A stretch of 50,959 nucleotides of DNA from Candidatus Minusculum obligatum (GTDB taxonomy: Bacteria; Patescibacteriota; Minisyncoccia; Phycocordibacterales; Phycocordibacteraceae), in the NCBI GenBank assembly GCA_002331145.1, contig DCYT01000001.1:1-50959 (forward strand), given 5' to 3'. Positions 1 to 31,706 of this stretch are shown here, in pieces. The notes below the pieces were generated by a model. It saw nothing but the letters and a program-made list of their open reading frames with translations. It did not search any database and was not told the origin of the DNA. The first letter of the stretch is position 1; the number at the start of each line of letters is the position of its first letter. The position numbers and the translations under genes were made by a program.

Positions 1-19
1 TGAACTCTGTGCTATTCGG

Positions 20-91
20 CTCCGCGGACAGGATTCGAACCTGTGACCGATCGATTAACAGTCGATTGCTCTACCACTGAGCTACCGCGGA
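20..91 (-). tRNA. tRNA-Asn (anticodon GTT)
   Basis: The reverse complement reads TCCGCGG TAGCTCAGTGGTAGAGC ... ATCGA-CTGTTAA-TCGAT (anticodon loop with GTT) ... GGTTCGAATCC T-arm ... CCGCGGA. The 7-bp acceptor stem pairs perfectly. CCA is not encoded. Confidence 0.9.
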
Positions 92-190
92 ATATAAATA
101 CGCTCACTTGAAGCGTGTGGGCATTGTACCCAAAAAGCTCTATTTTGCAATGTGATATACTCACCAAATAACAAATAATTTTATTCAAAT

Positions 191-436
191 ATGCTCACGC
201 TATACGTAAAAACAGGATGTCCATTTTGTGCAAAAGTAAAAAACACTGTTGCAGAATTTGGTATTGAAGATCAGATTGAGGAGAGGAATATTGCAGATGA
301 AGGTGTGGTAGATGAGCTGCTTGAGAAAGGAGGTCAGAAGATGGTCCCGTTTCTTGTAGATGCTGAAAGGGAGGTGAGTATGTACGAGTCAGATGATATC
401 GTTGCGTACCTTAAGGAGCATTACGCAGGAGACTAA
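191..436 (+). CDS. glutaredoxin-like small thiol-disulfide protein
   Basis: 81 aa with an N-terminal CPFC redox motif (YVKTGCPFCAKVK) and a later VPFL segment, typical of the glutaredoxin/NrdH fold. Confidence 0.8.
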   Translation: MLTLYVKTGCPFCAKVKNTVAEFGIEDQIEERNIADEGVVDELLEKGGQKMVPFLVDAEREVSMYESDDIVAYLKEHYAGD

Positions 437-439
437 GTC

Positions 440-664
440 ATGTACGTTAAAGTCCGTGCAATGCCAAGTGCTAAGAAAGAACGCATTATAGAAATGGATG
501 ATGCACGGGAATTAACTATACATGTGCGTGAGCCAGCGCAGCAAAATATGGCAAATAGGCGTATTATAGAAATATTGGCAGAACGTTTTTCTGTTCCATC
601 ACGATCAATACAGATGCTTTCAGGATTTCGTTCTCCAAATAAAGTATTTTCAATTGATCCATGA
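440..664 (+). CDS. DUF167 (YggU-like) family protein
   Basis: 74 aa. The pattern V.V.A.P.AK...I ...L.I.V..P...G.AN..I...LA..F.V resembles YggU/DUF167. It lies 3 nt after the upstream gene. Confidence 0.55.
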   Translation: MYVKVRAMPSAKKERIIEMDDARELTIHVREPAQQNMANRRIIEILAERFSVPSRSIQMLSGFRSPNKVFSIDP

Positions 665-1026
665 ATATAATCTTCAAAGGAACGAACTACACAATTACTC
701 CAGACATAGAAAAGCTTTGCAATGATCGCATTGATGCGGCAACAAGAATGCTTGGCGCTGATAAAGAGAAAGCTCTTGTTGAAGTAGAGCTTGAGCTTGT
801 AGAAGAGCGAAAGAATAACAATGCAGTATATCGAGCAGAAGCTAATGTTTCTGTTGACGGGAACTTCTATCGAGCTGAATCTACACGTCGTTCAATGCAA
901 AATGCAATAAGTGACGTAAAAAAGGGTCTTTCAAATGAAATTAGAAAAGACCGAGGGAAAAACAGCTCTATGATTAAGGACGGAGGTCGTGCAATGAAAT
1001 CATTGCTTCGGGGCTTCAGGAGGTAG
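661..1026 (+). CDS. hpf: ribosome hibernation promoting factor / RaiA family protein
   Basis: 121 aa. The N-terminus MNIIFKGTNYTITPDIEKLCNDRI and the later AEANVSV.G..YRAES match the HPF/YfiA sigma-54 modulation protein pattern. ATGA overlap with the upstream gene. Confidence 0.65.
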   Translation: MNIIFKGTNYTITPDIEKLCNDRIDAATRMLGADKEKALVEVELELVEERKNNNAVYRAEANVSVDGNFYRAESTRRSMQNAISDVKKGLSNEIRKDRGKNSSMIKDGGRAMKSLLRGFRR

Positions 1027-1857
1027 GGAATAACCAGTAAGTTCGCGATAGCGGACTTCTTTTTTACCCTCAGGAATAACCTTCGTTGGAAGGAAGATTC
1101 CTTCATGATATGTCGCGTCGGCAATTTTTATTCGTACCCCATCTTCTGTAAAGAAAAATGTTCCAGGCCATGGATAGTATGCGCAGAATTTTAGGAAGTT
1201 TTGGTATGGGTCATTTTTAAAATCAATTTCTCCACACTCCTTTTTCATTTTTGTAGTAAAGGTAGCTTCTTCATGGTTTTGTGGCGTTGCTTTTATTTCT
1301 CCATCACACCAGAGTCTCATAGCTTTTGCTAAAAGTTCTCCTCCGCAAGCAGCAAATACTCGTGTAAGTTCATCTTTTCGTATTGGCCATGCAGGAAGAT
1401 TTTTTTCTGCTTGAAGCACAATTGGACCGTGATCAAGTTCTTCATCCATTTGCATAATAGTTACACCAACAGGTTTTTCATCTGCCAAGATCTGTCCTTC
1501 AATAGGAGATGCGCCCCTAAAGCGCGGGAGTAGAGACGGGTGTACATTAAGTGTTCCGCACCGTGGTAGGTCAATAAGTTCTTTTTTTAAAATTTTCCCA
1601 TACGCTGCAACTACAAATACATCAAAATTATCTTTAAGCTCTTTGGGAATTTCTTTTAAAGATTCTGGCTGTATAACAGGAATATTATTCTCCTGCGCCC
1701 AGACTTTAACTGCGGGAGGAGTCAGCTTCATTCCACGCCCTGCTTTTTTATCTGGTGCAGTAACAATAAGGGAAGGGAGCATATCTCGCTCTTGTAGCTC
1801 TTCTAGTATGCGCACCGCAAAAGGCGGCGTTCCAAAGTATGCAAATTTAAGACTCAT
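1000..1857 (-). CDS. fmt: methionyl-tRNA formyltransferase
   Basis: Contains the HPSLLPRFRGASPI motif and an N-terminal FAYFGTP Rossmann start. The preferred start is MSLKFAYFGT at 1857; the track ORF extends to 1884. It overlaps the def stop, the classic def-fmt operon arrangement. Confidence 0.9.
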   Translation of the reverse strand: MSLKFAYFGTPPFAVRILEELQERDMLPSLIVTAPDKKAGRGMKLTPPAVKVWAQENNIPVIQPESLKEIPKELKDNFDVFVVAAYGKILKKELIDLPRCGTLNVHPSLLPRFRGASPIEGQILADEKPVGVTIMQMDEELDHGPIVLQAEKNLPAWPIRKDELTRVFAACGGELLAKAMRLWCDGEIKATPQNHEEATFTTKMKKECGEIDFKNDPYQNFLKFCAYYPWPGTFFFTEDGVRIKIADATYHEGIFLPTKVIPEGKKEVRYRELTGYSLPPEAPKQ

Positions 1858-2350
1858 GTTTTTCAAGATTCTCAGCGTGATCAATAAAGAGAACTCCGTT
1901 TAGGTGGTCGATCTCATGTTGGTACGCTTGAGCTAGTATTCCGCCACCACCGCGAGTAAACCAGTTTCCTTCAGCATCCTGCGCCTTTACCGTTGCGCGC
2001 TCAAATCGTTGTGTGTTTCCATATATACCATCAACAGAAAGACACCCCTCAGGAATAGTTGCTTGCTTCCTAGAAGTTTTAACAATTTCTGGATTAATAA
2101 AGATTCCAACTTCAGGTTCTAACTCTTCCTTAGATTCAGGTACCATTCGGTCATATCGAACAATAAATATCCTATAAGGGATAGCTATTTGAGGAGCGGC
2201 AAGTGCTACGCCGTGTTTTGCTGTATCGAGTGATTCTTTCATCTCCTCAAGCATCTTTGTAAGTTTTGGAGTATTAAAAAGATCCGCAGGAACCTCCTTT
2301 GCGGTTTCTCGTAGTACGGGATCCCCGTCTTGTACGATATCTTTTGACAT
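1847..2350 (-). CDS. def: peptide deformylase
   Basis: All three PDF motifs are present: GVALAAPQI, EGCLS and HEIDHLNG. Confidence 0.95.
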   Translation of the reverse strand: MSKDIVQDGDPVLRETAKEVPADLFNTPKLTKMLEEMKESLDTAKHGVALAAPQIAIPYRIFIVRYDRMVPESKEELEPEVGIFINPEIVKTSRKQATIPEGCLSVDGIYGNTQRFERATVKAQDAEGNWFTRGGGGILAQAYQHEIDHLNGVLFIDHAENLEKHES

Positions 2351-2364
2351 AAATCGAGTATAAC

Positions 2365-2520
2365 AAAAAACACCGCCAAATGTAGCGGTGAAGGGAAGGT
2401 GACCAAGGAGCTCGCCGGGGGGACGATTTATAACTCCTTGATCACCTAACAGACGAGGTGGACAAGGGTTGGTAGCCTCGCCTGGTTTTGGGCACTGGAG
2501 CTCTCACTCAGGCACCCAAA
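2365..2520 (-). ncRNA. candidate structured small RNA or leader upstream of def, class unknown
   Basis: Three consecutive hairpins (stems of 9, 9 and 13 bp) plus a terminal CACCGC-N8-GCGGUG hairpin followed by UUUUUU. Four stem positions are G-U pairs on the minus strand and would be A-C mismatches on the plus strand. Confidence 0.45.
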
Positions 2521-2563
2521 CTCTTCTATAATTGATAGTACTCCTATAAAATAGAAATGCAAT

Positions 2564-2851
2564 ATGGAACATATCGGAGCAAACCTACCAGAGTTTAAAA
2601 AAGAAAAGAACAGGAAAACTGAGCGAGGAGAGCTCATGGTCTATTTTCGTACAAAACTAAATGCAGGGAGAGAGAAGGACGGGCTCAAGCCTTTGTCTAT
2701 GGGAAGAATGGGAATGTTGCTTCAAGGAATTCCAACAGAAGATCTTTATTATCTTAAAAGTGTTTGTAATCAAGCAAAGCATTTCTCAAAGAAATTTTGG
2801 TGGGAAATCAATCCAAAGAATCACGAAGGGAAGCAATTTGGACAGAAGTAA
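2564..2851 (+). CDS. hypothetical small protein
   Basis: 95-aa ORF just upstream of murA with protein-like composition (..LYYLKSVCNQAKHFSKKFWWEINPK..). The start is uncertain: an internal ATG at 2636 is preceded by AGGAGA. Confidence 0.45.
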   Translation: MEHIGANLPEFKKEKNRKTERGELMVYFRTKLNAGREKDGLKPLSMGRMGMLLQGIPTEDLYYLKSVCNQAKHFSKKFWWEINPKNHEGKQFGQK

Positions 2852-2872
2852 AATACTACGTACAATAGGGAT

Positions 2873-4168
2873 ATGAATTCGCGCGAGATGTTGGTTGTGA
2901 AAGGTCTTGGAGGAAAGAAAACACTTTCGGGCGAAATTACTATTAACGGTGCAAAAAATGCAGTATTGCCACTTATGGCATCTGCAATTCTTTTTAATGG
3001 GAAGGTGCAAATCAAAAAACTTCCAGAGATTCGAGATGTTATTGCAATGCGAGAGTTACTCGCAGGCCTTGGTGCAGAGGTGTCCCAAAAAGGAAATGTA
3101 CTTTCTATAACTCCATCAAAGAAATCAAAAGGAGTGCTAGATGAAGATGTGGCAAAGCGTTTGCGGGCTTCAATTATTTTAACGGGACCTACTCTTGGAA
3201 AATATGGGAAAGTTGTATTTCCGCATCCCGGAGGATGTGTGTTAGGAGCTCGTCCAATTGACCTTTTTCTTTCTGCATATGAGAAGATGGGTGCAACAGT
3301 TGAACACAGTGGAAAGGCGTACATAATTAAGGCTCCACGTGGAGGGCTTAAGGGCGCAAATATTTTCTTTAAAACGATGAGTATGACCGCAACAGAAGCG
3401 CTCATGTTTGCAGCAACACAAGCAAATGGGAAGACTGTGCTTCATAACTGCGCCATGGAGCCGGAGATTGCATTTCTTGCTGACTGTCTAAATCAAGGAG
3501 GTGCAAAAATTGTAGGGGCTGGAACGCCAACAATTACTATTACACCCACAAAGAGCCTAAAGCAGAAGAAAGCATTTCCAGTACTTCCTGATCGTATTGA
3601 GGCAGGAAGCTTCCTTATTTTGGGTGCGCTTCTTGCGAAGAATTTAACTATTAAGAATGTTATTCCAGAACATCTTCAGATTGTTATTGAGCTTCTAAAA
3701 GAATCAGGTGTTCCTATAACAACTACAAAAAATACTATCTCAATAAAGAACAACATAAAACCAAACAGTTCATTTGAACCAGTGTCATTTAGAACTCATG
3801 AGTACCCAGGATTCCCAACAGACCTGCAGGCGCCAATGGTTGTATTTTTAACTCAAACAAAAGGAGAGAGTACTGTGCTTGAAACAGTGTTCGACAATAG
3901 ATTTAATTTTGTACAAGATCTTGTTCGTATGGGAGCAAGAGCAAGTATTTGGAATCCACACCAAATAACGGTGTACGGTCCATCAAAGCTAAAGGCGCGA
4001 CACTTAACAGGTCCTGATATTAGAGCTGGTCTTGCGTACATAATTGCAGCGCTTCTTGCAAAGGGAACAGGAACTATAGATAATGTGCACCTTATTGATC
4101 GAGGATATGCAGATATTGAAGGAAGGTTATCTGCACTCGGTGCAACTGTTGAGCGAAGAGAAGCATGA
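2873..4168 (+). CDS. murA: UDP-N-acetylglucosamine 1-carboxyvinyltransferase
   Basis: 431 aa. Has the INGAKNA N-terminus, the active-site Cys context HPGGCVLGARPID and the C-terminal IDRGY..IE..L..LGA. Confidence 0.95.
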   Translation: MNSREMLVVKGLGGKKTLSGEITINGAKNAVLPLMASAILFNGKVQIKKLPEIRDVIAMRELLAGLGAEVSQKGNVLSITPSKKSKGVLDEDVAKRLRASIILTGPTLGKYGKVVFPHPGGCVLGARPIDLFLSAYEKMGATVEHSGKAYIIKAPRGGLKGANIFFKTMSMTATEALMFAATQANGKTVLHNCAMEPEIAFLADCLNQGGAKIVGAGTPTITITPTKSLKQKKAFPVLPDRIEAGSFLILGALLAKNLTIKNVIPEHLQIVIELLKESGVPITTTKNTISIKNNIKPNSSFEPVSFRTHEYPGFPTDLQAPMVVFLTQTKGESTVLETVFDNRFNFVQDLVRMGARASIWNPHQITVYGPSKLKARHLTGPDIRAGLAYIIAALLAKGTGTIDNVHLIDRGYADIEGRLSALGATVERREA

Positions 4169-22003: not shown

Positions 22004-22196
22004 AAACGATGGCACGGCTTGGAGTCAAGAAGGACCTTGTCCTTGCGGGCCCTCCAGACTCGAGGAGACCGGTTGGAGGAGTTCTTGTTCCTTCTGGTCG
22101 CTCCGAATTTGACACCAGGATCACCAAACGCCGCTAATCGTTTGTTTTCAAACGGTTCCATAAACGCCACATTGCAGAAAGCAGTGTGGCGTTTTC
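22004..22196 (+). ncRNA. candidate structured RNA with closing helix and terminator, class unknown
   Basis: GC-rich intergenic stretch. Long-range helix AACGAT.GC..GGC.TTGG (22005-22024) pairs with CCAA..GCC.GC..ATCGTT (22123-22142), followed by a terminator at 22164-22196. One stem position is a U-G pair that is only valid on the plus strand. Confidence 0.4.
22164..22196 (+). terminator. intrinsic terminator
   Basis: ACGCCACATTGC-AGAAA-GCAGTGTGGCGT followed by TTTTC. Confidence 0.7.
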
Positions 22197-22234
22197 AAAT
22201 ATAAATTTCCATGGTATATTCCACGACACAAACA

Positions 22235-22309
22235 GGCCCTATCGTCTAGCGGCTAGGACATCGCCCTCTCACGGCGGAAACCGGGGTTCGATTCCCCGTA
22301 GGGTCACCA
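22235..22309 (+). tRNA. tRNA-Glu (anticodon CTC), CCA encoded
   Basis: GGCCCTA acceptor stem, GTCT/GGAC D-stem, anticodon stem UCGCC/GGCGG with loop CUCUCAC, T-arm CGGGG-TTCGATT-CCCCG, then TAGGGTC-A-CCA. Confidence 0.95.
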
Positions 22310-23795
22310 ATTTAGATGTATCAGCACCAGCCTTCTTATTTATCTCGAAAATAAGGGACATTTTAGTGGTTCCAAATTTTGCTCCATCAAAAGTGATTTT
22401 TTCAGGAAATAGCAGTTTTTGGAACCGTAGTCTATGTTCTGGTTGTTTTTCTAAATCTTTCCACGTTTTAGAACTGTCTCTAACAAAATCAAAACAAAAT
22501 GAGAGTGCCTCATCCATATTTAATTCTTCAAATTGCTTTTCTTTTAAAAGAGATTTATTAAGATGTATTCGTTTGTTTATAGATTCTTTTTGCTCTAAAA
22601 ATTCTATATCCTTATAAACTCCAGATCTGTGGAATTCGAATACTTTTTGTCTTTCGTCTTCTAGATTTGAAATATCTCTCCTCACTTTTTCATTTTCTTT
22701 ATCAAGTTTTTTAAAGTTGGATTGCCAGACATCTAATACAACAGCCTTGAAAGCTTCTTCATACTCTTTCTCTTTTGGAGCAACCGTTTCGAGGAAAGAT
22801 ATAAAATTTGCTTCAAACTTTTCTTTAGAGTGAGACTTTGCGTGAGGACAATTTTGTTTCTGGTGGTGGTAGTAAGGATATTTTTTTCCTTTTCTTCCTG
22901 TGGAAGAACTTCCCGTTAAGGTCACCTCGCAATGGTCACATTTAACAAACTTTCGCAAAGGAAACTCAGGGTTTTGTTTTAACCTAGGCCCGTCCCCATA
23001 CTTTCTATGTACTCCAGGCTGACATTTCCAAAATAGATCCTCACTAATAATTGGTTCAAAACTTCCTACAACTTCCATATCAAAAGCCTGTATCAATCCG
23101 TAGTAAATGTGGTTTTTAATTATCTTTTCTATAGATTGAGGATATAGTTTTTTCCCTGAAGATCCCACCAAACCTTTTTTATATAAAAGGTTAGATAATG
23201 ATTTAAAACTATGTACACCTTTCGACCACTCTTCGAATGCCATACGTATGTAAGGGGCTACAGAATCGTCTATAACAAGATTTCCGCCTTTTATTACACG
23301 CTTGTATCCCAAAGGAGCTTTCCATACCCATACGCCTGATTTTACGCGTTCCACCATACCGCCTTTACTGCGTGTGGCTCTAGTACTATTTTCAAACTCG
23401 GCAAAAAGAGCAAGCATTCCCTCTGAAAGCATTCCTACAGGACTATCATCCATATGCTCAGTTACTGATTGCAGACTTGTTCCATATTTTTTTAGAAAAC
23501 TTCTAGCAACAACGTGATCATTCTGATTTCTGGCAAACCTGTCAATCTTATAAACAAGAAAGAAGTCAATGGAATTCTTTTTCTTTGAACAATAACTTAT
23601 AGCTTCTTGAAATTTTGGTCTGTTAGCTGTTTTTGCTGATTCTCCTTCTTCAACAAAACACTTAAGAACCTGTATTCCTTTATGATCAGCATACTCTTTG
23701 CAAATTCTTTCTTGACTGCGTAGACTCGTTCCTTTTACTTGTTCAGCAGAAGACACACGGCAGTAGATAATTCCTGTTTTCTTTTGAGTATCCAT
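22269..23795 (-). CDS. large serine recombinase
   Basis: 508 aa. N-terminal resolvase domain with catalytic Ser (GIIYCRVSSAEQ), a recombinase domain, a zinc-ribbon-like C.HC...C and a C-terminal coiled coil. The last 41 nt of the ORF are antisense to the tRNA-Glu 3' half. Confidence 0.95.
   Translation of the reverse strand: MDTQKKTGIIYCRVSSAEQVKGTSLRSQERICKEYADHKGIQVLKCFVEEGESAKTANRPKFQEAISYCSKKKNSIDFFLVYKIDRFARNQNDHVVARSFLKKYGTSLQSVTEHMDDSPVGMLSEGMLALFAEFENSTRATRSKGGMVERVKSGVWVWKAPLGYKRVIKGGNLVIDDSVAPYIRMAFEEWSKGVHSFKSLSNLLYKKGLVGSSGKKLYPQSIEKIIKNHIYYGLIQAFDMEVVGSFEPIISEDLFWKCQPGVHRKYGDGPRLKQNPEFPLRKFVKCDHCEVTLTGSSSTGRKGKKYPYYHHQKQNCPHAKSHSKEKFEANFISFLETVAPKEKEYEEAFKAVVLDVWQSNFKKLDKENEKVRRDISNLEDERQKVFEFHRSGVYKDIEFLEQKESINKRIHLNKSLLKEKQFEELNMDEALSFCFDFVRDSSKTWKDLEKQPEHRLRFQKLLFPEKITFDGAKFGTTKMSLIFEINKKAGADTSKLVTLRGIEPRFPP
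22301..22314 (+). repeat. left att core copy (GGGTCACCAATTTA)
   Basis: Covers the last 9 nt of tRNA-Glu plus 5 nt. Matches 27102-27115 at 13 of 14 positions. Confidence 0.6.
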
Positions 23796-23798
23796 ATA

Positions 23799-23990
23799 TC
23801 AAACGATAGTATCTTTACTGTTTTTTGTGAATAACCCAAGGTTATCTTTGGAACCATATTTTTTCTCCCAATAGGTATCAAACATGAGTTGAGCCGCTTC
23901 GTAGAATGCATCACGAATAGCCGCAACATCTTTATCAGGAAGACGTTTCAAACTCTTATCTATTTTTCGTAATTTTTCTATCGAGAGCAT
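23799..23990 (-). CDS. hypothetical 63-aa protein co-transcribed with the recombinase
   Basis: The ORF ends 3 nt before the recombinase ATG. Helical, charged sequence (..DKDVAAIRDAFYEAAQLMFDTYWEKKYG..). Confidence 0.55.
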   Translation of the reverse strand: MLSIEKLRKIDKSLKRLPDKDVAAIRDAFYEAAQLMFDTYWEKKYGSKDNLGLFTKNSKDTIV

Positions 23991-24033
23991 ATAAGCAAAA
24001 AGCAGCCATCGATGACTGCCTCTGCTTACTTAA

Positions 24034-24081
24034 GAATTGGTAGCTCAATACACAGTGACTGTGTCATCGAATTACCAATTC
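24034..24081. repeat. nested inverted repeat
   Basis: Outer arms GAATTGGTA (24034-24042) and TACCAATTC (24073-24081) enclose the inner hairpin ACACAG-TGA-CTGTGT. Confidence 0.6.
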
Positions 24082-24433
24082 AATACAAACTTACTATTTA
24101 GATCTAAATTCATTTTTAGAGCGCAAGCTCAAGGTTTTGTCCTATTCTTATCATCACTGACGCAGATGCCTCGTTAGAACACGTAGACTAAGTAGTGTAA
24201 GTATCAATTGGGAGATTAATAAAGATTTCTCTTAAGTTCCATTAGAGAAAGTTTCTATTAACCCTATTAACTGTTTGATATTGTATCAGAGTAGTTACCT
24301 ACCCTAAAAGGGGACAAAAGGTGGATAGAGTTTGATACCTTAACAAATAGGCTTGGAAGGTATAGAATTAGCAAACAATTGAATACGCTCTTTAGGAGCA
24401 AGGCCTAACCCATTTTTGGTATGGCCCAAAATT

Positions 24434-24476
24434 CGCGTTCAACGTAAAAACCCCGTCATCCAGGGCGTTGAACGCG
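24434..24476. repeat. 11-bp perfect inverted repeat
   Basis: CGCGTTCAACG (24434-24444) and CGTTGAACGCG (24466-24476) with a 21-nt loop. It lies about 55 nt upstream of the 24532 ORF and is followed by the tandem AGGATCTT AGGATCTT (24497-24512). Confidence 0.6.
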
Positions 24477-24531
24477 TTGCAGAGGGAAACTTCTGTAGGA
24501 TCTTAGGATCTTCTGGTGGCGGGATTTTTGT

Positions 24532-24870
24532 ATGAAAATAAACTTAGATAAAATTGAGAAAAATCTAGAAGCCTATCAAGCTTTTATTAAAGAAAATACT
24601 ACTAGTGAGCACAGGCAAAAGAGGTGGGGGCTTACGCTAGATAAAGAAGAAAATAGAAAAAAGTTTCCAAGGGAATTTATAGATGAAATAGGTGTTGAGT
24701 TAGATCATGCTCAAATAAAAAGATTCTTCATGATGAGTGACGCAGAAAAATTTCTATGGGCTTATTGGAGTCAAAGAAATATAGCAAGGAAAAGTTTTGT
24801 ATGGGGGATGTATGGTCTAATCTTTTTTATTGTCATCATCCTTATCATCTTTGGCAACCTCTTCTTCTGA
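24532..24870 (+). CDS. hypothetical tail-anchored membrane protein
   Basis: 112 aa. A soluble charged N-terminal part with a single C-terminal TM helix (GMYGLIFFIVIILIIFGNLFF). The last 54 nt overlap the 3' end of the convergent ATPase gene. Confidence 0.5.
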   Translation: MKINLDKIEKNLEAYQAFIKENTTSEHRQKRWGLTLDKEENRKKFPREFIDEIGVELDHAQIKRFFMMSDAEKFLWAYWSQRNIARKSFVWGMYGLIFFIVIILIIFGNLFF

Positions 24871-26916
24871 TTCTTTTCTGGTTAAATCCAAAATTATAGG
24901 CCTATTACTTCCAATCGCTTTACCGTGAACAACAGCATGATACTGCTTTAGTTTTTGTATATTTTTTATAAATTCTGTTCCTGTATAGTTGCTCATAAAC
25001 TCTTTTGTTGTTGTATCAAATGATTGAAGACATATCACGGTGTTGCATTGAGTTAATACAGTTTTTGATACGTTTGCCGATCGTTGGGCGATAACCAAGA
25101 GTCCGACACCGTATTTGCGTCCCTGAAGTGCAATTTGACTCATTCTACTTACAAGTTGCTTGTTGCTTCCATAATCTCCCATTTCGCCAAGAAAATTTGT
25201 TTCTGGAATAATGGTATGAGCTTCTTCAAGAACAATGCAAATTCGTTGATCTTCGTTATCTCTTGCAAGTTGAAATATTTCACCCAGGAAGATTTCTGTA
25301 TATGAAAGGATTGAAGTTGTCCCGGTAAAGCCAGGTAATTCAAACAGGCCAACATTATTGTCTGAGTCTTGCAAGAATGTTTCAATTCGGTTTTTTACTC
25401 TCTTTTTAATTTGGTCTTTGACAGTTGCTATTCCAGACTTGTTTTGAGCATTAGGTGATTTTTTGCTTTCCTCTTCTATATAATTGAATCTTTTTTCAGC
25501 AAAAGTTTTTGACGCATCATCTATAATTTCTACAGGGTTCAGCGAAGTAAGTTTTTCTTTGTATTCTCCTGTAAAATCTATACAGACAACCTTCATTTCT
25601 TTCTCAATTTCTGATATAAGTTCATGAGCAAGAAAAGATTTTCCTGACCCTGTAACTCCAAGTAGGGCAGTGTGGTGTGTTACGGCAGAAATTAAATCAA
25701 TAAAAACAGGTATTTTAATTTTTGGAATGAATCCAAGAGTATGTTCAATACGCCTCTCATCTTTTATGGGTTTTGGGTTATATTTATCGACCTGAGGAAA
25801 TTTAACAAGTTGATTTAGTTGTGGTGTCCATCCGTAAGGTTCAAATGTTCTATCTTTTTCATTGTAAAACCCAAGTTGTTCTGCGTGGGCAAAAATACCT
25901 CTTCTCGATATATTCTGAGCGAGTTCTTCGGTAGAGGTGGTTGCATCTATTATTTGGTAAAGAACCTCCCTCTCTTCTTTTTTGTTGTCCTTCGAATAAG
26001 AAATATCGACAACAACAACATCTCCTTCCTCTAAAGTACCCTCTGTAGAAGGGAACGGTTCAAATATTATTCTGTTAACATTAGAGCCGTCAGAAATTTT
26101 TCCAATAATACTCGAAGCTTTGTTTTTTGCGGCAATTTTAACAGACCGTTGTTTGCCTAAAATAATTTTAGAACCGTTAATGAGTATTGCTTCTGCAATA
26201 ATATCTTTATCAAGCGCCAGTAGATTTGTAATAACAAAATTACGTGTACTATTATTTTTATCCAGAACTTCAATGACAGTTCCTTCTGACAACCTCTCAT
26301 TTAACCTAAGTTTGATTGTAGTTTCACCCTGGATGGCGATAATGCTTCCAACAATACCATCTTCTTTTTCCTCAGAAACAAGATATTTTGAGAAGAAATC
26401 AATTATTTTATGTATCTCTTTTGCAAAGAGGGCAATTACAAAAGCAATTGTTAGTGCAGCAATTGATTCATTAGGGATTGTTTCTGCTGTTGTTAAGAAG
26501 AGTAAGAAGGCGAGAGGATACAGAACTCTAGACGCGCCAGCGCTACCAACAGCTTTTCTGAGAAAGTTAAGAATGTCAGAATCTTTTTCTTGTAGTGCTT
26601 TTAATATAAATGAAAGGATAAGAAGTATAGATACAAGAAGTACAAAAGGAAGCCAAAAATAAAATATTGCTGTACCTATAAATATTTCTGATTGGCTAAG
26701 TAGTAAAAGTAAAACTGCAAAAGTGTTGGCTAAGGCGGTTGCAGGAGAAGTGTAATATTGTTCAATAAAAAATGCCGCTATTATTAGCGGCAGAAATGCT
26801 AGAAAGAAAGTATTTGAAAGCCCAAGCAGAAAAAGACCTGTTGCTACAAAAATAATAGCTATCAAAATACGTAGGAAAATCTTTAAATTTTGTTCTTGAA
26901 TTTCTAGAAACTCCAT
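24817..26916 (-). CDS. membrane-anchored HerA/FtsK-superfamily (DUF87-like) ATPase
   Basis: 699 aa. About 5-6 TM helices in residues 1-175. Beta-rich barrel-like region at about 185-370. Walker A GVTGSGKS (420-427), Walker B ICIVLEEAH (559-567) and the HerA-like LLVIAQRSANVSKTVLTQCNTVICLQ. Acidic C-terminal tail. Confidence 0.85.
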   Translation of the reverse strand: MEFLEIQEQNLKIFLRILIAIIFVATGLFLLGLSNTFFLAFLPLIIAAFFIEQYYTSPATALANTFAVLLLLLSQSEIFIGTAIFYFWLPFVLLVSILLILSFILKALQEKDSDILNFLRKAVGSAGASRVLYPLAFLLFLTTAETIPNESIAALTIAFVIALFAKEIHKIIDFFSKYLVSEEKEDGIVGSIIAIQGETTIKLRLNERLSEGTVIEVLDKNNSTRNFVITNLLALDKDIIAEAILINGSKIILGKQRSVKIAAKNKASSIIGKISDGSNVNRIIFEPFPSTEGTLEEGDVVVVDISYSKDNKKEEREVLYQIIDATTSTEELAQNISRRGIFAHAEQLGFYNEKDRTFEPYGWTPQLNQLVKFPQVDKYNPKPIKDERRIEHTLGFIPKIKIPVFIDLISAVTHHTALLGVTGSGKSFLAHELISEIEKEMKVVCIDFTGEYKEKLTSLNPVEIIDDASKTFAEKRFNYIEEESKKSPNAQNKSGIATVKDQIKKRVKNRIETFLQDSDNNVGLFELPGFTGTTSILSYTEIFLGEIFQLARDNEDQRICIVLEEAHTIIPETNFLGEMGDYGSNKQLVSRMSQIALQGRKYGVGLLVIAQRSANVSKTVLTQCNTVICLQSFDTTTKEFMSNYTGTEFIKNIQKLKQYHAVVHGKAIGSNRPIILDLTRKESEEEVAKDDKDDDNKKD

Positions 26917-27101
26917 ATTGTTTGTTTAGTATGATGTTTTTGGAAAATAAAGGCAAGAAAGCTTTTTCTAATCTAAGTTGGTAGTTAAAATGTGAGTTTG
27001 TTTGAAATGGTGCAGTTTTGTTCTAAATCTTTTTGCTGAAACGTTAAATCTTTCCCAATCTTTCATTTCTTTTATTAATTGGTTCCAATTTCGTCCCACT
27101 T

Positions 27102-27115
27102 GGGTCACAAATTTA
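27102..27115 (+). repeat. right att core copy (GGGTCACAAATTTA)
   Basis: 13/14 match to 22301-22314. It sits where the AT-rich block ends. Confidence 0.6.
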
Positions 27116-27123
27116 TGAAAACA

Positions 27124-27151
27124 GCACGTAGTATTTACTACGTGCGGTTTT
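27124..27151 (+). terminator. intrinsic terminator, probably the original tRNA-Glu terminator displaced by the insertion
   Basis: GCACGTAGTA-TT-TACTACGTGC followed by GGTTTT. There is no plus-strand gene immediately upstream in the present arrangement. Confidence 0.6.
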
Positions 27152-27193
27152 CATTGTATAAAGCTTTTAGAAGTGAAGACTAAGGAGGCGAAT

Positions 27194-27817
27194 ATGTTTG
27201 TATACACTGTCGCTTTCTTTGCGACATTACCGCTACGAGTTGGAATTATTTGGAGAAATTTTCAATGCTGGCGCTTTGGGAAAGTTGCTCGAAAGCAAGA
27301 AGATCGTATCTACGAACTCAGTAAACATGTTCTTAATAGTTTTATCTCGGAAGATAAAACTATTAATTATATTGAATACCACTCACAACTTTCTTTGGGT
27401 TACCCAACAAAAGAAAATGGAGAGCGGTTTTCAGAGATATGTTGGGAAGCACCCATTTGCTTTACAATCTTCCATAATGACAAGCCGCTGGTTGGCATGG
27501 GCTTAGAGTTTCGAGGCTCAGCACTGTGCATATGGCAGCTTCAGGGTGTTCGTGGCGCAAAAGTACCAGAGACCATTCGTAAATGGCCAGCACTTTTTGT
27601 GGAGGGCGCAAAGAAATTTGCGTCAGAAACAAAAGAAATACGTTCAGTTCGAGTTTACGCAGCTGATCAACGTATTTCATACAGGTTTCCAGAAGGAGAT
27701 TTGAGTGAAGCGGATATGTGCAGGCACCAGAGAAATTTACGCCGTCGCTATGATGGCACTGCCAGACAGCAAGGTTTCAAAAAAGTATCAAAAAGGTATT
27801 GGGAGTGGAAAGGGTAA
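27194..27817 (+). CDS. hypothetical protein
   Basis: 207 aa from the ATG at 27194, with AAGGAGG 5 nt upstream. The track ORF uses a GTG at 27173. I recognise no motif. Confidence 0.7.
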   Translation: MFVYTVAFFATLPLRVGIIWRNFQCWRFGKVARKQEDRIYELSKHVLNSFISEDKTINYIEYHSQLSLGYPTKENGERFSEICWEAPICFTIFHNDKPLVGMGLEFRGSALCIWQLQGVRGAKVPETIRKWPALFVEGAKKFASETKEIRSVRVYAADQRISYRFPEGDLSEADMCRHQRNLRRRYDGTARQQGFKKVSKRYWEWKG

Positions 27818-27846
27818 GGACCGCATGTATTTGCGGTCCTTTTTTC
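27817..27846. terminator. bidirectional intrinsic terminator
   Basis: AGGACCGCA-TGTATT-TGCGGTCCT followed by TTTTT, between convergent ORFs. Confidence 0.85.
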
Positions 27847-27855
27847 TGGTCATTG

Positions 27856-28035
27856 TCAGTAACGAACAATGGTTGCGCCGTACACATGAAGAGTTGGCTG
27901 CCTTGCTTCTCGAAAACTTCGATGGAAGGCAGCACTGTCTTCAATTCGCTTGGCGGCAAGCCTAACAAGTTCTGTATTTTGCTCAAGCGTTCTGTCCTGC
28001 GCAGCCTTTTGGAGGCCTTCTCCAATTTTTGCCAT
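27856..28035 (-). CDS. small 59-aa ORF absent from the ORF track
   Basis: The ATG at 28035 is preceded by GAGGAGA 6 nt upstream. Translates to MAKIGEGLQKAAQDRTLEQNTELVRLAAKRIEDSAAFHRSFREARQPTLHVYGATIVRY. The stop lies 10 nt before the shared terminator. Confidence 0.5.
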   Translation of the reverse strand: MAKIGEGLQKAAQDRTLEQNTELVRLAAKRIEDSAAFHRSFREARQPTLHVYGATIVRY

Positions 28036-28081
28036 CTGGTGTCTCCTCTAAATCTTTTCTGATACTACAACAAGAGATAGT

Positions 28082-29053
28082 TTGTTACAATTTCCCCATA
28101 TGATCGCAGGACTTGGAATATGGGGATTTGTACTGGTGATGTCACTAGTAGTTCTTGTAAAAGGTGCAGACTCTTTTATTAACTCTGCAGAGAAGATAGG
28201 GAAGGCATTTAAGCTTTCTCCATTTGTAATTGGAGTATTGCTTGTTGGTATCGGAACCTCACTTCCTGAATTTGCCAGTGGTGTTGCAGCTTTGCTTGCA
28301 GGAAATGTGGAAATTATTGCCGCCAATGCTATTGGATCAAACATAACTAACATTCTGCTTATTGTTGGAATCCTTGCAGTTCTTGCAAAGAAGTTTGTTA
28401 TTAAACAAGATCTTCTGGCATCAGAGCTTTCTTTGTTTGTAGTTTCGACATCTCTTTTCATTGGAGTTGCATTTGATGGGGTCATTACAATTCTTGAGTC
28501 ATCGCTTCTTGCCATTGGATTTATCATCTACCTTTTTTATATTCTTTTTGGAAACGATAAAGATGCTCCAGCAACTGCAAAATACAAAGCAGAGCTTGAG
28601 ACAGGGAAGGTGACAAAAGGAACTATTGTTGCCTTTGTTCTGGGTCTTGGAGGAGTTATTTTAGGGGCACGTTTTCTCATTGAGTCTGTAGTATCCATCT
28701 CAGACATTCTAGGAATTGGAACAGGAGTTATTGCTATTACTATTGTGGCGCTTGGAACTTCATTGCCTGAGTTATTTGTGTCACTTTCTGCATTACGCGG
28801 CGGAAGTACAGAGGTTGCTATTGGAAACATTTTTGGATCAAATGCCTTCAACCTCCTTTTCGCGGTTGGAGTGCCAGGTCTTTTCTCAACACTTCCTCTT
28901 GATCCAAAGACTTTGAGTATTGGAATTCCAATTCTTGCTGTTGCTTCATTTATTTTTGTAATTACAGGTATAGCTCAACGTATTTATAGATGGGAAGGGC
29001 TCATGTTCCTTGTCTACTATGCATTCTTCGTAATAAAAGTTATTGGTTTTTAG
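28082..29053 (+). CDS. Ca2+/Na+ antiporter (CaCA/YrbG family)
   Basis: About 10 TM helices with two alpha-repeat signatures, GTSLPEF and GTSLPEL. The start may instead be the ATG at 28100. Confidence 0.85.
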   Translation: MLQFPHMIAGLGIWGFVLVMSLVVLVKGADSFINSAEKIGKAFKLSPFVIGVLLVGIGTSLPEFASGVAALLAGNVEIIAANAIGSNITNILLIVGILAVLAKKFVIKQDLLASELSLFVVSTSLFIGVAFDGVITILESSLLAIGFIIYLFYILFGNDKDAPATAKYKAELETGKVTKGTIVAFVLGLGGVILGARFLIESVVSISDILGIGTGVIAITIVALGTSLPELFVSLSALRGGSTEVAIGNIFGSNAFNLLFAVGVPGLFSTLPLDPKTLSIGIPILAVASFIFVITGIAQRIYRWEGLMFLVYYAFFVIKVIGF

Positions 29054-29071
29054 TGTGGTACTCTAGAAGAA

Positions 29072-30250
29072 ATGCACATTTTCTCTAAGAACCTCTGGAC
29101 GCTTTTTGGTAGCCGACTCATAACCCATGCAGGGCTCTCTCTGATGGGGGTGTTCCTTCCCACTTTTATTTATCTTGAGTATGGAGGGTCTCTTCAAGTT
29201 GTGGTGTGGGCATTTATTGCAGGATTTGCACTTCATTTCCTCCTAACGCCACTCTCTGCAAAGCTTATTAAGAGTGTGGGGATGAAAAAGCTCATGATTA
29301 TTGCGCTTGTTCCATTTCTTGCAGCTGCCCTTACCGCGCTTGCGTTTTGGGAATACAATCCAACACTGATGCTTATCATCTATATGCTTGCGTGGGCAGG
29401 GTATAGAGCACTGTATTGGGTCCCATATCACGTAGAGGTTGCAGAGTCCTTAGATAGTGAGCACAGAGGAAGGCAGGTTTCTGTTTTTACAAATCTAAGC
29501 GCTGTTGTTTCAGTTATTGCTCCATTTATCGGAGGAGTACTTATTGAGTATTTTGGATTCTCTTGGGTCTTTATTGCAGGAATTGTTTTGGTAGTTATGG
29601 CAGCGGCTCCGCTGTTCTTTATGGAGGAAATACATGAAGAGTATTCATTTAAATATATTGAAAGTTTTAAAGATCTGTTCAAAAAAGAGAAGAGAGGTTT
29701 GTTTTATGCATATGCAGGTGATGGGGCGCAGACGGTAGTGGCACTTGTGTTCTGGCCAATCTTTATTTATCTCATTCTTGATGGAAACTTTGCAGCAGTT
29801 GGAGCAGTGTCTTCTTTGGTAGTGCTTGCGACAATTGTTTTGGCTTCATTTGCAGGAGAGCTTGTCGATCGTATTTCTCGTACGCAAGTAATTATCATCA
29901 GTACCATTATTTACACAACAGGATGGTTCCTTAAAAGTTTTGCAAGCACAGCGCTCCACATCTTCCTCTTTGATGCATATCACAATGCAGGAAAGGCAGT
30001 AAATCGAGTTGCTTTTGATGTAGGAAGCTACACGCACCTTGCAGATAATGGGCACTATGTTGATGAGTACACAGCATTTAAGGAGATGGCGCTCAATCTT
30101 GGGCGAATTGCAATGCTCATGTTTGGTGGATTCCTAGCACTCTTGTTTGGTATAAAAGTTGCTTTCATCCTTGCTGCATTTGCATCTCTTACTATGGTTT
30201 TGGTAAACTCAGCGCTCAAGAAGCATGATACTGCTCGTAGACAAACCTAA
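29072..30250 (+). CDS. MFS-type transporter
   Basis: 392 aa with about 12 predicted TM helices in two halves separated by a charged loop (EEIHEEYSFKYIESFKDLFKKEKR). Confidence 0.65.
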   Translation: MHIFSKNLWTLFGSRLITHAGLSLMGVFLPTFIYLEYGGSLQVVVWAFIAGFALHFLLTPLSAKLIKSVGMKKLMIIALVPFLAAALTALAFWEYNPTLMLIIYMLAWAGYRALYWVPYHVEVAESLDSEHRGRQVSVFTNLSAVVSVIAPFIGGVLIEYFGFSWVFIAGIVLVVMAAAPLFFMEEIHEEYSFKYIESFKDLFKKEKRGLFYAYAGDGAQTVVALVFWPIFIYLILDGNFAAVGAVSSLVVLATIVLASFAGELVDRISRTQVIIISTIIYTTGWFLKSFASTALHIFLFDAYHNAGKAVNRVAFDVGSYTHLADNGHYVDEYTAFKEMALNLGRIAMLMFGGFLALLFGIKVAFILAAFASLTMVLVNSALKKHDTARRQT

Positions 30251-30863
30251 AGGCATTACCTCATTTGATGTTATTCGGAAGCTTCGCAAAGAGCTTAATA
30301 TTCGCAAGATGGGGCATGCTGGAACATTAGATCCGCTTGCAAGTGGTCTTTTAATAATTGCCACAGAAACAGATACAAAAAAACTGGATCAGTTTTTAAA
30401 ACTTCCAAAGACGTATGAAGTTGCAGTTCGAATAGGGGAGAAGCGAAGCACGGGAGATCTAGAGGGAGAAATTTTAGAGAAGGTAGAGGTATCTGATATT
30501 AGTGAAGAGAAAGTAAAGGAGGTGCTTGATGGTTTTGTAAAAGTGCACACTCTTACTGTCCCAATGTATTCAGCGATTAAAGTAGATGGGAAACCTTTGT
30601 ATTGGTATGCAAGGAATGGAGTAAAGGTAGAGGCTCCGGAGAAAGATATGGAGGTAACAGACGTGAAGCTTTTAAATATAGAAAAGGGTGAAGATTTTGT
30701 AACGATTAATTTAGAACTCGCTGTTACGAGTGGTACGTACATAAGAGCTCTTGCAGAAAAGTTTGGAGAGTTACTTGGGTATCCTGCAACAACAGCAGAG
30801 CTAAGAAGGGCTGTAATAGGGGAGTATAAAGTGGAGGATGCAAAGAAAATAGCCGCAGATTAA
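30225..30863 (+). CDS. truB: tRNA pseudouridine(55) synthase
   Basis: ILLVDKPKGITSFDV and the catalytic Asp motif GHAGTLDPLASGLL. Confidence 0.95.
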   Translation: MILLVDKPKGITSFDVIRKLRKELNIRKMGHAGTLDPLASGLLIIATETDTKKLDQFLKLPKTYEVAVRIGEKRSTGDLEGEILEKVEVSDISEEKVKEVLDGFVKVHTLTVPMYSAIKVDGKPLYWYARNGVKVEAPEKDMEVTDVKLLNIEKGEDFVTINLELAVTSGTYIRALAEKFGELLGYPATTAELRRAVIGEYKVEDAKKIAAD

Positions 30864-30874
30864 ATAATCTACGG

Positions 30875-31438
30875 CTAGAAAAGTCCTGGCTGCTCGTCAC
30901 CTTTCACTGCAGCGGCCTTATGACCTTTTATCTCCTTGCGTCTACGTGTAGAGGTTGCTTTCTGGGCATTGATTCGTCGAATCATTGAAAGGAATTCACC
31001 TTGCTGCACATTGTGCTGCAAAGTTCCTTCCTCACGTCTCTTTGCAAGAAAGTCACTTGCAAAGTCGTCCTGCTCTCCACCACGGGGTCGCTTAGAAGAT
31101 CTTTGTTCACCCTCCACTTTTATCCGAAGAGAAATTCCTTTTCCGTACTGCCTGATACAGTTTTGGGCAAGTCTAAAAATATATTCTTCACGATGCGTTT
31201 CAAGCCGTATTGGTGTGGCGAAATAACGCTTCGTCTTTCTTTTCGGTTGCTTTGGAACGTGCTCAAAGTATTCAAGCTCACCGATAATATCATCAGCAAG
31301 CCTTTCAATACTTTCTGTTCCGTATACACGCATATTCAGAACTAATTTCTGAATGTAGATGCGAAGAGCGTGTGGGTCTTTCGGGAAGCTGCCTTTTTTA
31401 ATGGCAGCGTCCACAAAGTCTTGTAGTTCGCGTGCCAT
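30875..31438 (-). CDS. hypothetical basic protein
   Basis: 187 aa from MARELQDF, with GGAGA 5 nt upstream. Lys/Arg-rich C-terminal half. No recognised motif. Confidence 0.55.
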   Translation of the reverse strand: MARELQDFVDAAIKKGSFPKDPHALRIYIQKLVLNMRVYGTESIERLADDIIGELEYFEHVPKQPKRKTKRYFATPIRLETHREEYIFRLAQNCIRQYGKGISLRIKVEGEQRSSKRPRGGEQDDFASDFLAKRREEGTLQHNVQQGEFLSMIRRINAQKATSTRRRKEIKGHKAAAVKGDEQPGLF

Positions 31439-31466
31439 GTTGGTCTCCATAGTAGGGAACAACGCA

Positions 31467-31670
31467 CTATGCAGTGCGCTGTCTGGGGCGAATTACCCCT
31501 CGTTCACGAAGTTTTGCAAGCACTTTGCGCTTGAGGTTATTAACATCCGGCTTGTGCCGAATACCAACCCCCTCAATTGCCTTGATTGCAGCCAGTGGCC
31601 AACCAACATGCTTTGCAAGTTTTTCTTTGCGCCGAATTGTTGCATCGGCAAGAGCATCAATGTTGGCCAA
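31467..31670 (-). CDS. hypothetical small protein (TTG start proposed)
   Basis: GGGAGG lies 5 nt upstream of the TTG at 31670, downstream of a near-consensus promoter. The longer track ORF (to 31736) would start inside the -35 region. Confidence 0.45.
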   Translation of the reverse strand: MANIDALADATIRRKEKLAKHVGWPLAAIKAIEGVGIRHKPDVNNLKRKVLAKLRERGVIRPRQRTA

Positions 31671-31706
31671 AATAGCCTCCCATTTCTGTATTGAACGTCT
31701 GCGTAT

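Follow-up and report, generated by a model that had tools for sequence, protein, structure and literature searches.

A small tRNA-targeted element of Candidatus Minusculum obligatum with a probable attachment site inside the 3' end of its serine recombinase gene

Recombinase Gene and Its Two Predicted Forms

The DNA analyzed here, hereafter the window, is a stretch of 50,959 nucleotides of Candidatus Minusculum obligatum (contig DCYT01000001.1), a Patescibacteria/Candidate Phyla Radiation (CPR) bacterium whose relatives have genomes of about 0.6 Mb. A tRNA-Glu(CTC) gene (22235-22309, plus strand; ARAGORN; Rfam tRNA, 58.8 bits) serves as the target of a small integrated element, and a large serine recombinase (LSR) gene of the element (22269-23795, minus strand; identified from the list of open reading frames (ORFs), Pfam, and PHROGs) reads into it from the opposite strand. 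Very probably, the 3' end of the recombinase gene contains the attachment site attP of this element, the gene has two isoforms, and the tail that integration detaches from it is a real protein segment.

In the integrated state the gene encodes 508 amino acids (aa) ending in ..SKLVTLRGIEPRFPP*. Residues 1-498 come from the element, while the last ten (LRGIEPRFPP) are translated from antisense tRNA; the final 41 nt of the ORF lie inside the tRNA-Glu gene, and its TGA stop codon overlaps the anticodon loop. An initial annotation of the window had described this frame as crossing the left copy of a short core and terminating 41 nt into antisense tRNA-Glu with a 10-residue tail, and its coordinates and sequences proved to be correct. 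On the minus strand both cores read GTG ACC C in the same codon phase, and joining them preserves the frame (GTG ACC | CAA GTG GGA), which gives a 542-aa product with the 44-codon tail QVGRNWNQLIKEMKDWERFNVSAKRFRTKLHHFKQTHILTTNLD. As the annotation had predicted for the circular form, this frame stays open for 44 codons and stops at 26968-26970, 51 nt upstream of the ATG (position 26916) of a predicted ATPase gene. The detached 3' end of the recombinase gene (26968-27102, minus strand), consisting of the 44 codons (QVGRNWNQLIKEMKDWERF...) and the stop codon, also contains the P arm of attP; it was matched by a hidden Markov model (HMM) of the tail with E = 1.9e-12. The chance of a 44-codon open run is about 3.9% given the local base composition, the same order as the "few percent" estimated initially. 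Taken alone, a figure from one sequence carries little weight, and it is comparison that decides the matter: homologs of the tail are conserved, the gene is split in 32 of 32 mapped relatives, circular relatives exist, and an exact empty site was found. The observation as a whole is far outside what chance would give.

By every feature that can be judged from sequence, the enzyme is a member of the LSR group. It contains the Pfam domains Resolvase (PF00239, 5.1e-32, residues 9-156) and Recombinase (PF07508, 5e-9), with Zn_ribbon_recom (PF13408, 5e-4) below the Pfam cut-off, and the 508-aa form matches the phrog_95 integrase family (1.7e-81). The catalytic motif is IIYCRVSSAEQ; R13, S15 and other residues are invariant in the family alignment, as are Cys286, Cys289, and Cys316. 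The AlphaFold2 (AF2) model of a close homolog (mean predicted local distance difference test score, pLDDT, 86.9) has long helices at residues 343-390 and 396-423, and in a Foldseek search it matched the PDB structures of SPbeta SprA, Bxb1, the Listeria integrase 4KIS, and PhiC31 integrase (E 1e-18 to 1e-11). The catalytic, recombinase, and zinc-ribbon/coiled-coil domains are kept in both isoforms; integration removes only the last 44 of the 542 codons.

Immediately upstream of the recombinase gene is a conserved 63-aa ORF (23799-23990, minus strand), a candidate accessory or directionality factor. A homologous ORF of about 60 aa (MLSxExxRKIDPxL..SDEEL..LY..AQLAFD.W...GSKNP) was found a few nucleotides upstream of the recombinase gene in most of 83 element-bearing sources. 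Neither this ORF, nor a 112-aa ORF of the element, nor the tail had any match in Pfam, PHROGs, NCBIfam, or PADLOC.

Element Boundaries and the Empty Site

The sequence GGGTCAC occurs on the plus strand of the window only at 22301-22307 (attL, the left copy of the crossover region) and 27102-27108 (attR, the right copy). If the count begins just past the left core and includes the right one, the integrated element occupies 22308-27108 (4801 bp), and in the composition profile its GC content is approximately 0.33-0.38 against 0.42-0.46 in the flanks. The predicted attP junction of the element is CCCACTTGGGTCACCAATTTAG, and the predicted empty site, attB, is CCGTAGGGTCACAAATTTATG.

The predicted attB was not found in a scan of genome contigs; the scan of metagenome contigs then gave a single one, L083 (CESG01063855.1). 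Its positions 1-186 correspond to window 22129-22314 with 99.5% identity, and its positions 173-3935 to window 27102-30864 with 97% identity, so that the contig is collinear with the window on both sides minus exactly 22308-27108, and the overlap of the two alignments falls in the left core. In L083 the tRNA-Glu gene continues straight into the right flank (...CCCCGTAGGGTCACAAATTTATGAAAACAGC...). With the element precisely absent from this alignment, the island is therefore exactly 22308-27108, and the crossover took place within GGGTCAC; the boundaries on which the initial annotation had relied are thus confirmed to the nucleotide. In a further close relative, L084 (UBA3533, 96% identical upstream), the native end of the tRNA gene is the same as in L083 (...GGGTCACAAAT). 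A second difference between the window and L083 was observed further downstream, where window 30865-31694 (about 830 nt) is opposed to about 400 unaligned nucleotides of L083 (3936-4333).

Read on the coding strand of the recombinase, the core GTGACCC is antisense to the final bases of the acceptor stem, the discriminator, and the base that follows (position 74) in tRNA-Glu. From about position 72 onward the 3' end of this tRNA, with an encoded CCA, now derives from the element. The native gene ends in ..GGGTCACAAA and has no encoded CCA (L083, 173-186; L084, 8671-8682); upon integration the element supplies ..GGGTCACCA (..ACCA), and the tRNA gene gains an encoded CCA end (window 22301-22310).

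A chromosomal hairpin resembling a bidirectional terminator (27124-27145; detected by a terminator scan and as an inverted repeat) directly follows tRNA-Glu in the empty site, being present in L083. In the integrated state the same hairpin stands just upstream of the tail fragment and the ATPase gene on the minus strand.

C-Termini of Homologs and Related Loci

The hypothetical 542-aa protein of the circular form was used as the query in a protein search, which yielded 1942 relatives, almost all from CPR lineages; all relatives considered here are metagenome-derived. C-termini were classified in the best 120 of these homologs, and, contrary to the possibility that homologs end at or before ..LVT, two main types were seen. 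In 88 of the 120, about 505-517 aa long, the conserved ..S.LV[TARD] is followed by peptides of the types [LP]RGIEPRF.., PxGFEPxT.. or PTGFEPAASSVQMRRSTK, that is, by translated antisense tRNA T-arms. A further 17, of 517-555 aa, possess the contiguous tail LVTQVGxNWNQLIxELxxWxxFG, homologous to the 44-aa extension of the window.

A locus scan with one genome per species produced 80 loci (L003-L082). The recombinase ORF terminates within an antisense tRNA in 58 of these loci; the tRNA is mostly tRNA-Glu (TTC or CTC), but tRNA-Lys (CTT), tRNA-Ala (TGC), and tRNA-Arg (TCT) also occur. The tail HMM, made only from tails of database proteins and applied with a threshold of E <= 1e-3, matched 48 sources, always on the recombinase strand: the tail was contiguous with the gene in five and detached in 43. 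The detached tails lie upstream of the gene and occupy the opposite end of the element. For the 32 loci having both a called tRNA and a detached tail, the shared core was located with the reading frame unconstrained and the seed restricted to the tRNA end and the tail start. In all 32 the tail follows a copy of the tRNA-end core, shares the strand of the recombinase, and forms an open continuation of its reading frame; frame interruption in related elements, which would have spoken against the initial annotation, was not encountered. The cores measure 6-13 nt, the tail is 3.5-11 kb away (the size of the element), and the tails have 19-43 codons. A variant with an unrestricted longest seed placed four of the 32 loci out of frame, the window among them, via spurious seeds such as AAATTGG. 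Of 26 tRNA-overlapping loci lacking a tail HMM match, 13 had no upstream sequence, and five more had a diverged tail directly after a core copy. On these genomic comparisons, the split layout is a family trait across many CPR lineages.

Several features of these loci concern the tRNA targets. At tRNA-Glu targets the stop codon TGA of the integrated isoform is the antisense of A37 and the last two anticodon bases (..TC; window 22269-22271), and therefore the same 10-residue tail occurs in so many relatives. The junction residue after LV (T, A, R, D, or E) co-varies with the acceptor stem of the target tRNA (Glu, Lys, Ala, Arg) in loci L003-L082; target switching therefore recodes the protein. 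Some loci contain more than one tail fragment, each preceded by a core copy, upstream of one recombinase gene: L013 has two (4450, 5094) and L018 three (1926-2003, 2364-2486, 3129-3242), which suggests remnants of tandem or successive integrations at one tRNA.

Circular Relatives

Contig L091 (NCBI CAYTSX010000114.1, 4154 nt) has a 141-nt terminal direct overlap and can be closed to a circle of 4013 bp, of which L092, obtained from an independent sample, represents a circular permutation. The Logan contig L002 (6216 nt) has a 30-nt terminal overlap, and a match to the structured LOOT RNA spans its joined ends. All three carry the small ORF and an uninterrupted full-length recombinase gene, and no tRNA. 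In blastn comparisons the recombinase body and the tail abut in L091 (..3478/3464..); they are about 4.8 kb apart in the integrated L021 and similarly separated in L041 and L012.

Conservation of the Tail and Geometry of the Attachment Sites

Thirty-seven tails were aligned on an invariant Trp, and the distal part, codons +4 to +16, was analyzed separately, as it is situated 36-75 nt from the core, past a normal att arm. Its information content amounts to 0.77 bits at the first codon position, 0.91 bits at the second, and 0.29 bits at the third. Since the third positions are poorly conserved, the tail is under selection at the protein level. The conserved hydrophobic residues (W, L/I, L, W, F) have the helical spacing of an amphipathic pattern, and AF2 predicts tail helices at residues 493-502 and 504-527 of a full-length homolog with pLDDT of 85-92. 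In the model of the 508-aa form of the window the last 15 residues or so are coil, with pLDDT of 56 falling to 41, so the tRNA-derived tail is predicted to be disordered.

The predicted P' arm of attP (22308-22345) is inside the recombinase coding sequence, where it codes for ..AGADTSKL... Within it, ATCAGCACCA (coding for GAD) at +13..22 from the core mirrors ATTGGAACCA at the same distance in the P arm. In 25 of the 32 mapped loci the distal motif of the tRNA arm is 4-5 nt nearer to the core than the same motif of the P arm. In serine integrases, as reportedly described by Rutherford and colleagues in 2013, the distal motif of attB half-sites is offset by about 5 bp from that of attP half-sites, and the 4-5 nt offset fits this half-site spacing of LSRs. 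From the reach of attL and attR identity across loci, we infer that the crossover dinucleotide is limited to a 3-nt window around the GA of GTGACCC, corresponding to T71-C72 of the tRNA.

C-terminal Ala is over-represented in full-length relatives (17 of 49, against a background of 5.7%), with endings such as ..LALAA, ..LALVA, ..AQTLA, ..TAAAA, and ..KEYA (P0003, P0062, P0087, P0094, P0116, L035, L053, and others), reminiscent of ssrA-like degrons. An ssrA-like degron on the full-length form was considered and set aside: C-terminal Ala is also enriched in tRNA-derived tails (16 of 88), the tail of the window ends in ..TTNLD, and the test does not discriminate.

Interpretation of the Two Forms

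The proposal of the initial annotation that attP is inside the recombinase gene, with forms of 508 and 542 aa, is borne out by homologs, related loci, circles, and the empty site alike. In the free circle the uninterrupted gene would yield an enzyme of 542 aa whose C-terminus is a conserved amphipathic helix (..QVGxNWNQLIxELxxWxxFG..). Integration at the 3' end of the tRNA would shift the last 44 codons by 4.8 kb to the other end of the element, the frame would then enter antisense tRNA, and the product would be the 508-aa isoform with a 10-residue tail predicted to be disordered. We infer that the helix-bearing enzyme is made only by the excised or incoming circle; the helix could therefore be viewed as a molecular marker of the state of the element.

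A functional switch of recombinase activity or directionality is a plausible reading of this arrangement, though somewhat less likely than not. The version that we prefer is that the helix tunes the enzyme for attP x attB recombination through synapsis, coiled-coil control, or stability, and that the prophage isoform, perhaps together with the 63-aa partner as a candidate recombination directionality factor (RDF), behaves differently on attL x attR. The enzyme of the circle would then be integration-proficient or short-lived owing to the helix, that of the prophage would differ in directionality or activity, and the element would sense and remember its own topology without relying, or without relying solely, on an RDF; stated in this complete form, the idea is tentative and rather doubtful.

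Several observations weigh against the reading of attP within the gene and its two isoforms. The 542-aa protein itself is absent from the protein collection, where the best match is the 508-aa form, and an exact-pattern search of metagenome contigs for the circular junction of the window's own element found none; the circular form of this exact element is thus deduced from relatives with about 50-60% amino-acid identity. The last 18 or so residues of the window's tail are not conserved, and the proximal motif NWNQ, encoded by AATTGGAACCA, probably overlaps a recombinase-binding motif, so that part of the conservation could be at the level of DNA. Three relatives (L035, L075, and L082) have a full-length, tail-bearing gene on large contigs with no tRNA at its 3' end, and some others have junctions to non-tRNA sequence. 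L001 (4528-5143), in which tRNA-Lys is 540 nt downstream of a full-length gene and does not overlap it, falls outside the simple scheme of integrated and circular forms.

The most serious alternative to a state switch is neutral compaction: attP would overlap the gene end as the element is tiny, the tail would be real protein, and the two isoforms would recombine equally, with no regulatory meaning. The retention of all catalytic and DNA-binding domains in the 508-aa isoform is in keeping with this, and so are the intact ORFs of integrated copies in 58 of 80 loci and the small size (19-43 aa) and variable end of the tail. However, a dispensable tail would not be expected to hold its amphipathic pattern and third-position wobble over phylum-level divergence, nor to stay open in 32 of 32 detached copies; we consider neutral compaction possible, at a modest level of probability. 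A lock-in of the suicidal type, in which loss of the helix inactivates the enzyme and excision needs full-length enzyme provided in trans by an incoming relative, is unlikely. It has an analogy in the SSV, pTN3, and pT26-2 integrases, with attP in the gene and tRNA targets (PMC8371274), and the extra tail fragments of L013 (two) and L018 (three) suggest repeated visits to one tRNA; but only the C-terminal 6-8% of the protein is lost, comprising no catalytic or DNA-binding domain, the intact detached tails argue for continued cycling, and circular forms were recovered in assemblies.

Two further explanations deny the tail its role as the C-terminus of the recombinase. According to one, the open frame is fortuitous, and conservation reflects nothing but the P arm of attP to which the recombinase binds. 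The invariant TGGAA (W-N) does coincide with a plausible binding motif of the zinc-ribbon domain, which has a mirror copy in the P' arm and is similar to the tRNA T-arm. Nevertheless, conservation extends to +75 nt from the core, well past an att arm of about 25 bp, and has the codon periodicity reported above; the same segment forms the contiguous C-terminus of 17 database proteins and of two circles, and AF2 models it as a confident helix, all of which makes a purely DNA-level explanation hardly credible. According to the other, the detached fragment is a 46-aa peptide of its own, started at the GTG of the core and acting in trans as part of a split protein or as an RDF-like factor. Many attR sites have a GTG, ATG, or TTG at the core or adjacent to it, as in the ORF 26968-27108 of the window with its GTG start. 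This GTG is forced by the tRNA-derived core, though, the terminator-like hairpin stands immediately upstream with no promoter-like site between it and the fragment, and no ribosome-binding site is evident, so a peptide acting in trans is very improbable.

Relation to Known Systems

With PhiC31, Bxb1, A118/LI, SPbeta SprA, TnpX, CcrAB, and other classical LSRs, the recombinase of the window shares its domain set and fold. Its att sites are likewise short around a small common core, the motif spacing differs between the half-sites of attP and attB, and mobilization proceeds through a circular form. For attP x attB integration and RDF-dependent excision, the reactions typical of LSRs, the exact empty site and the circular relatives are indirect evidence. 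In contrast to these systems, where attP lies beside the gene and the enzyme is unchanged by integration, attP here is inside the gene; moreover, the direction of classical LSRs is set by a separate RDF, and their targets are usually protein-coding genes rather than tRNA 3' ends. The nearest LSR precedent for a state-dependent gene structure is Tn4451, whose circular intermediate is reported by Lyras and Rood (2000) to form a promoter for TnpX. In Tn4451 the rewiring is thus at the 5' side of the gene, whereas in the element of the window it concerns the 3' coding part.

Closer parallels are known outside the LSRs. The "suicidal" tyrosine integrases of the SSV type (SSV1, pTN3, pT26-2) have attP in the integrase ORF, target tRNA genes, and constitute a compact "all-in-one" module (PMC8371274, PMC7253208). 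As in the element described here, attP is within the ORF, and the gene is partitioned to both ends of the element upon integration into a tRNA gene. The SSV-type enzymes, however, have the tyrosine fold (Phage_integr_3) and are archaeal, while the window encodes a bacterial serine recombinase, and their N-terminal part is split from the catalytic portion, which is thought to be inactivating, while here only a C-terminal helix is exchanged. In mycobacteriophages BPs, Brujita, and others attP is also in an ORF, integration shortens the C-terminus by about 33 residues, and the behavior changes (PMC4557955). This integration-dependent immunity resembles our case in the location of attP and in the swap of a C-terminus, and differs in that the split gene is that of a repressor, the integrase is of the tyrosine type, and what is lost with the tail is a degradation tag of the ssrA kind; here it is the recombinase itself that is altered.

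A review of 2021 stated that recombinases that disrupt the gene encoding them occur only in Archaea (PMC8371274), and the family would be a bacterial example of the serine type against this statement. Full-text literature searches, the coverage of which was incomplete, turned up neither an account of this CPR family nor one of an LSR whose attP lies within the gene that encodes it. If the reading as a state switch is true, the archaeal integrases with attP in the gene would have in this family a counterpart among bacterial serine recombinases, widespread in CPR, a view that we hold with low confidence. Directionality of serine integrases is a central open problem in biology and genome engineering, and a family with different isoforms in each state would offer a simple two-construct route to the effect of the C-terminus on attP x attB versus attL x attR recombination. 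For CPR/Patescibacteria genomes it defines a class of small, tRNA-targeted mobile elements of 3.5-11 kb whose attB and attP can be predicted exactly, and it is of use in annotation, since hundreds of proteins called "recombinase family protein" terminate in translated antisense tRNA. The att sites could also aid genetics in hard-to-manipulate CPR organisms.

Cargo Genes and LOOT RNA

The rest of the element is occupied by a cargo region. The largest gene (24817-26916, minus strand) has a product of 699 aa that is hydrophobic in its N-terminal part and includes a HerA/FtsK-like P-loop ATPase, a variable cargo of the family; it matches DUF87/HerA (9e-14) and TrwB_AAD_bind (8e-8) in Pfam and HerA in PADLOC (3e-29), and its NCBIfam matches are all below the cut-off. 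Inovirus or conjugative identity was considered for the element on account of this membrane-anchored ATPase; only sub-threshold matches speak for it and the cargo is not conserved, so it is at most a possibility. The 112-aa ORF with a hydrophobic C-terminus (24532-24870, plus strand; ORF list) is also cargo.

In the chromosome both the tail fragment and the chromosomal hairpin precede the ATPase gene, and a sigma-70-like promoter was not found in between, CPR promoters being poorly known. The initial annotation had joined recombinase and ATPase in a single operon of the circle; the topology (51 nt, same strand) supports this, and coupling of the two genes in the window's own element is possible, while conservation does not extend to it. 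Only 15 of the 32 mapped elements have a co-directional gene next to the tail, and the cargo is unrelated between elements, which rules out operon coupling as a feature of the family.

In relatives the cargo varies: a Z1-domain protein, one resembling PIN, another resembling GP3_package, and many ORFs without a match were observed (coordinates of the cargo are, e.g., 2637-5066 in L002, 2585-3085 in L092, and 2819-3298 in L095). The region resembles a swappable cargo slot, possibly related to defense.

Upstream of the 112-aa ORF the element contains a LOOT RNA (Rfam RF03000; 24402-24513, plus strand), a structured RNA detected with 71 bits against a gathering score of 46.4. A covariance model built here detected LOOT in 31 of the 83 sources that bear the element and in none of the three loci that lack it. 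In elements with mapped boundaries it is always internal, usually a few hundred nucleotides upstream of the pair of small ORF and recombinase gene, in either orientation. LOOT thus appears, from its genomic distribution, to be a component of this family of mobile elements, which would give an orphan RNA a genomic home. Besides the window, it was seen in L001, L002, L003, L005, L009, L010, L015, L021, L026, and other relatives.

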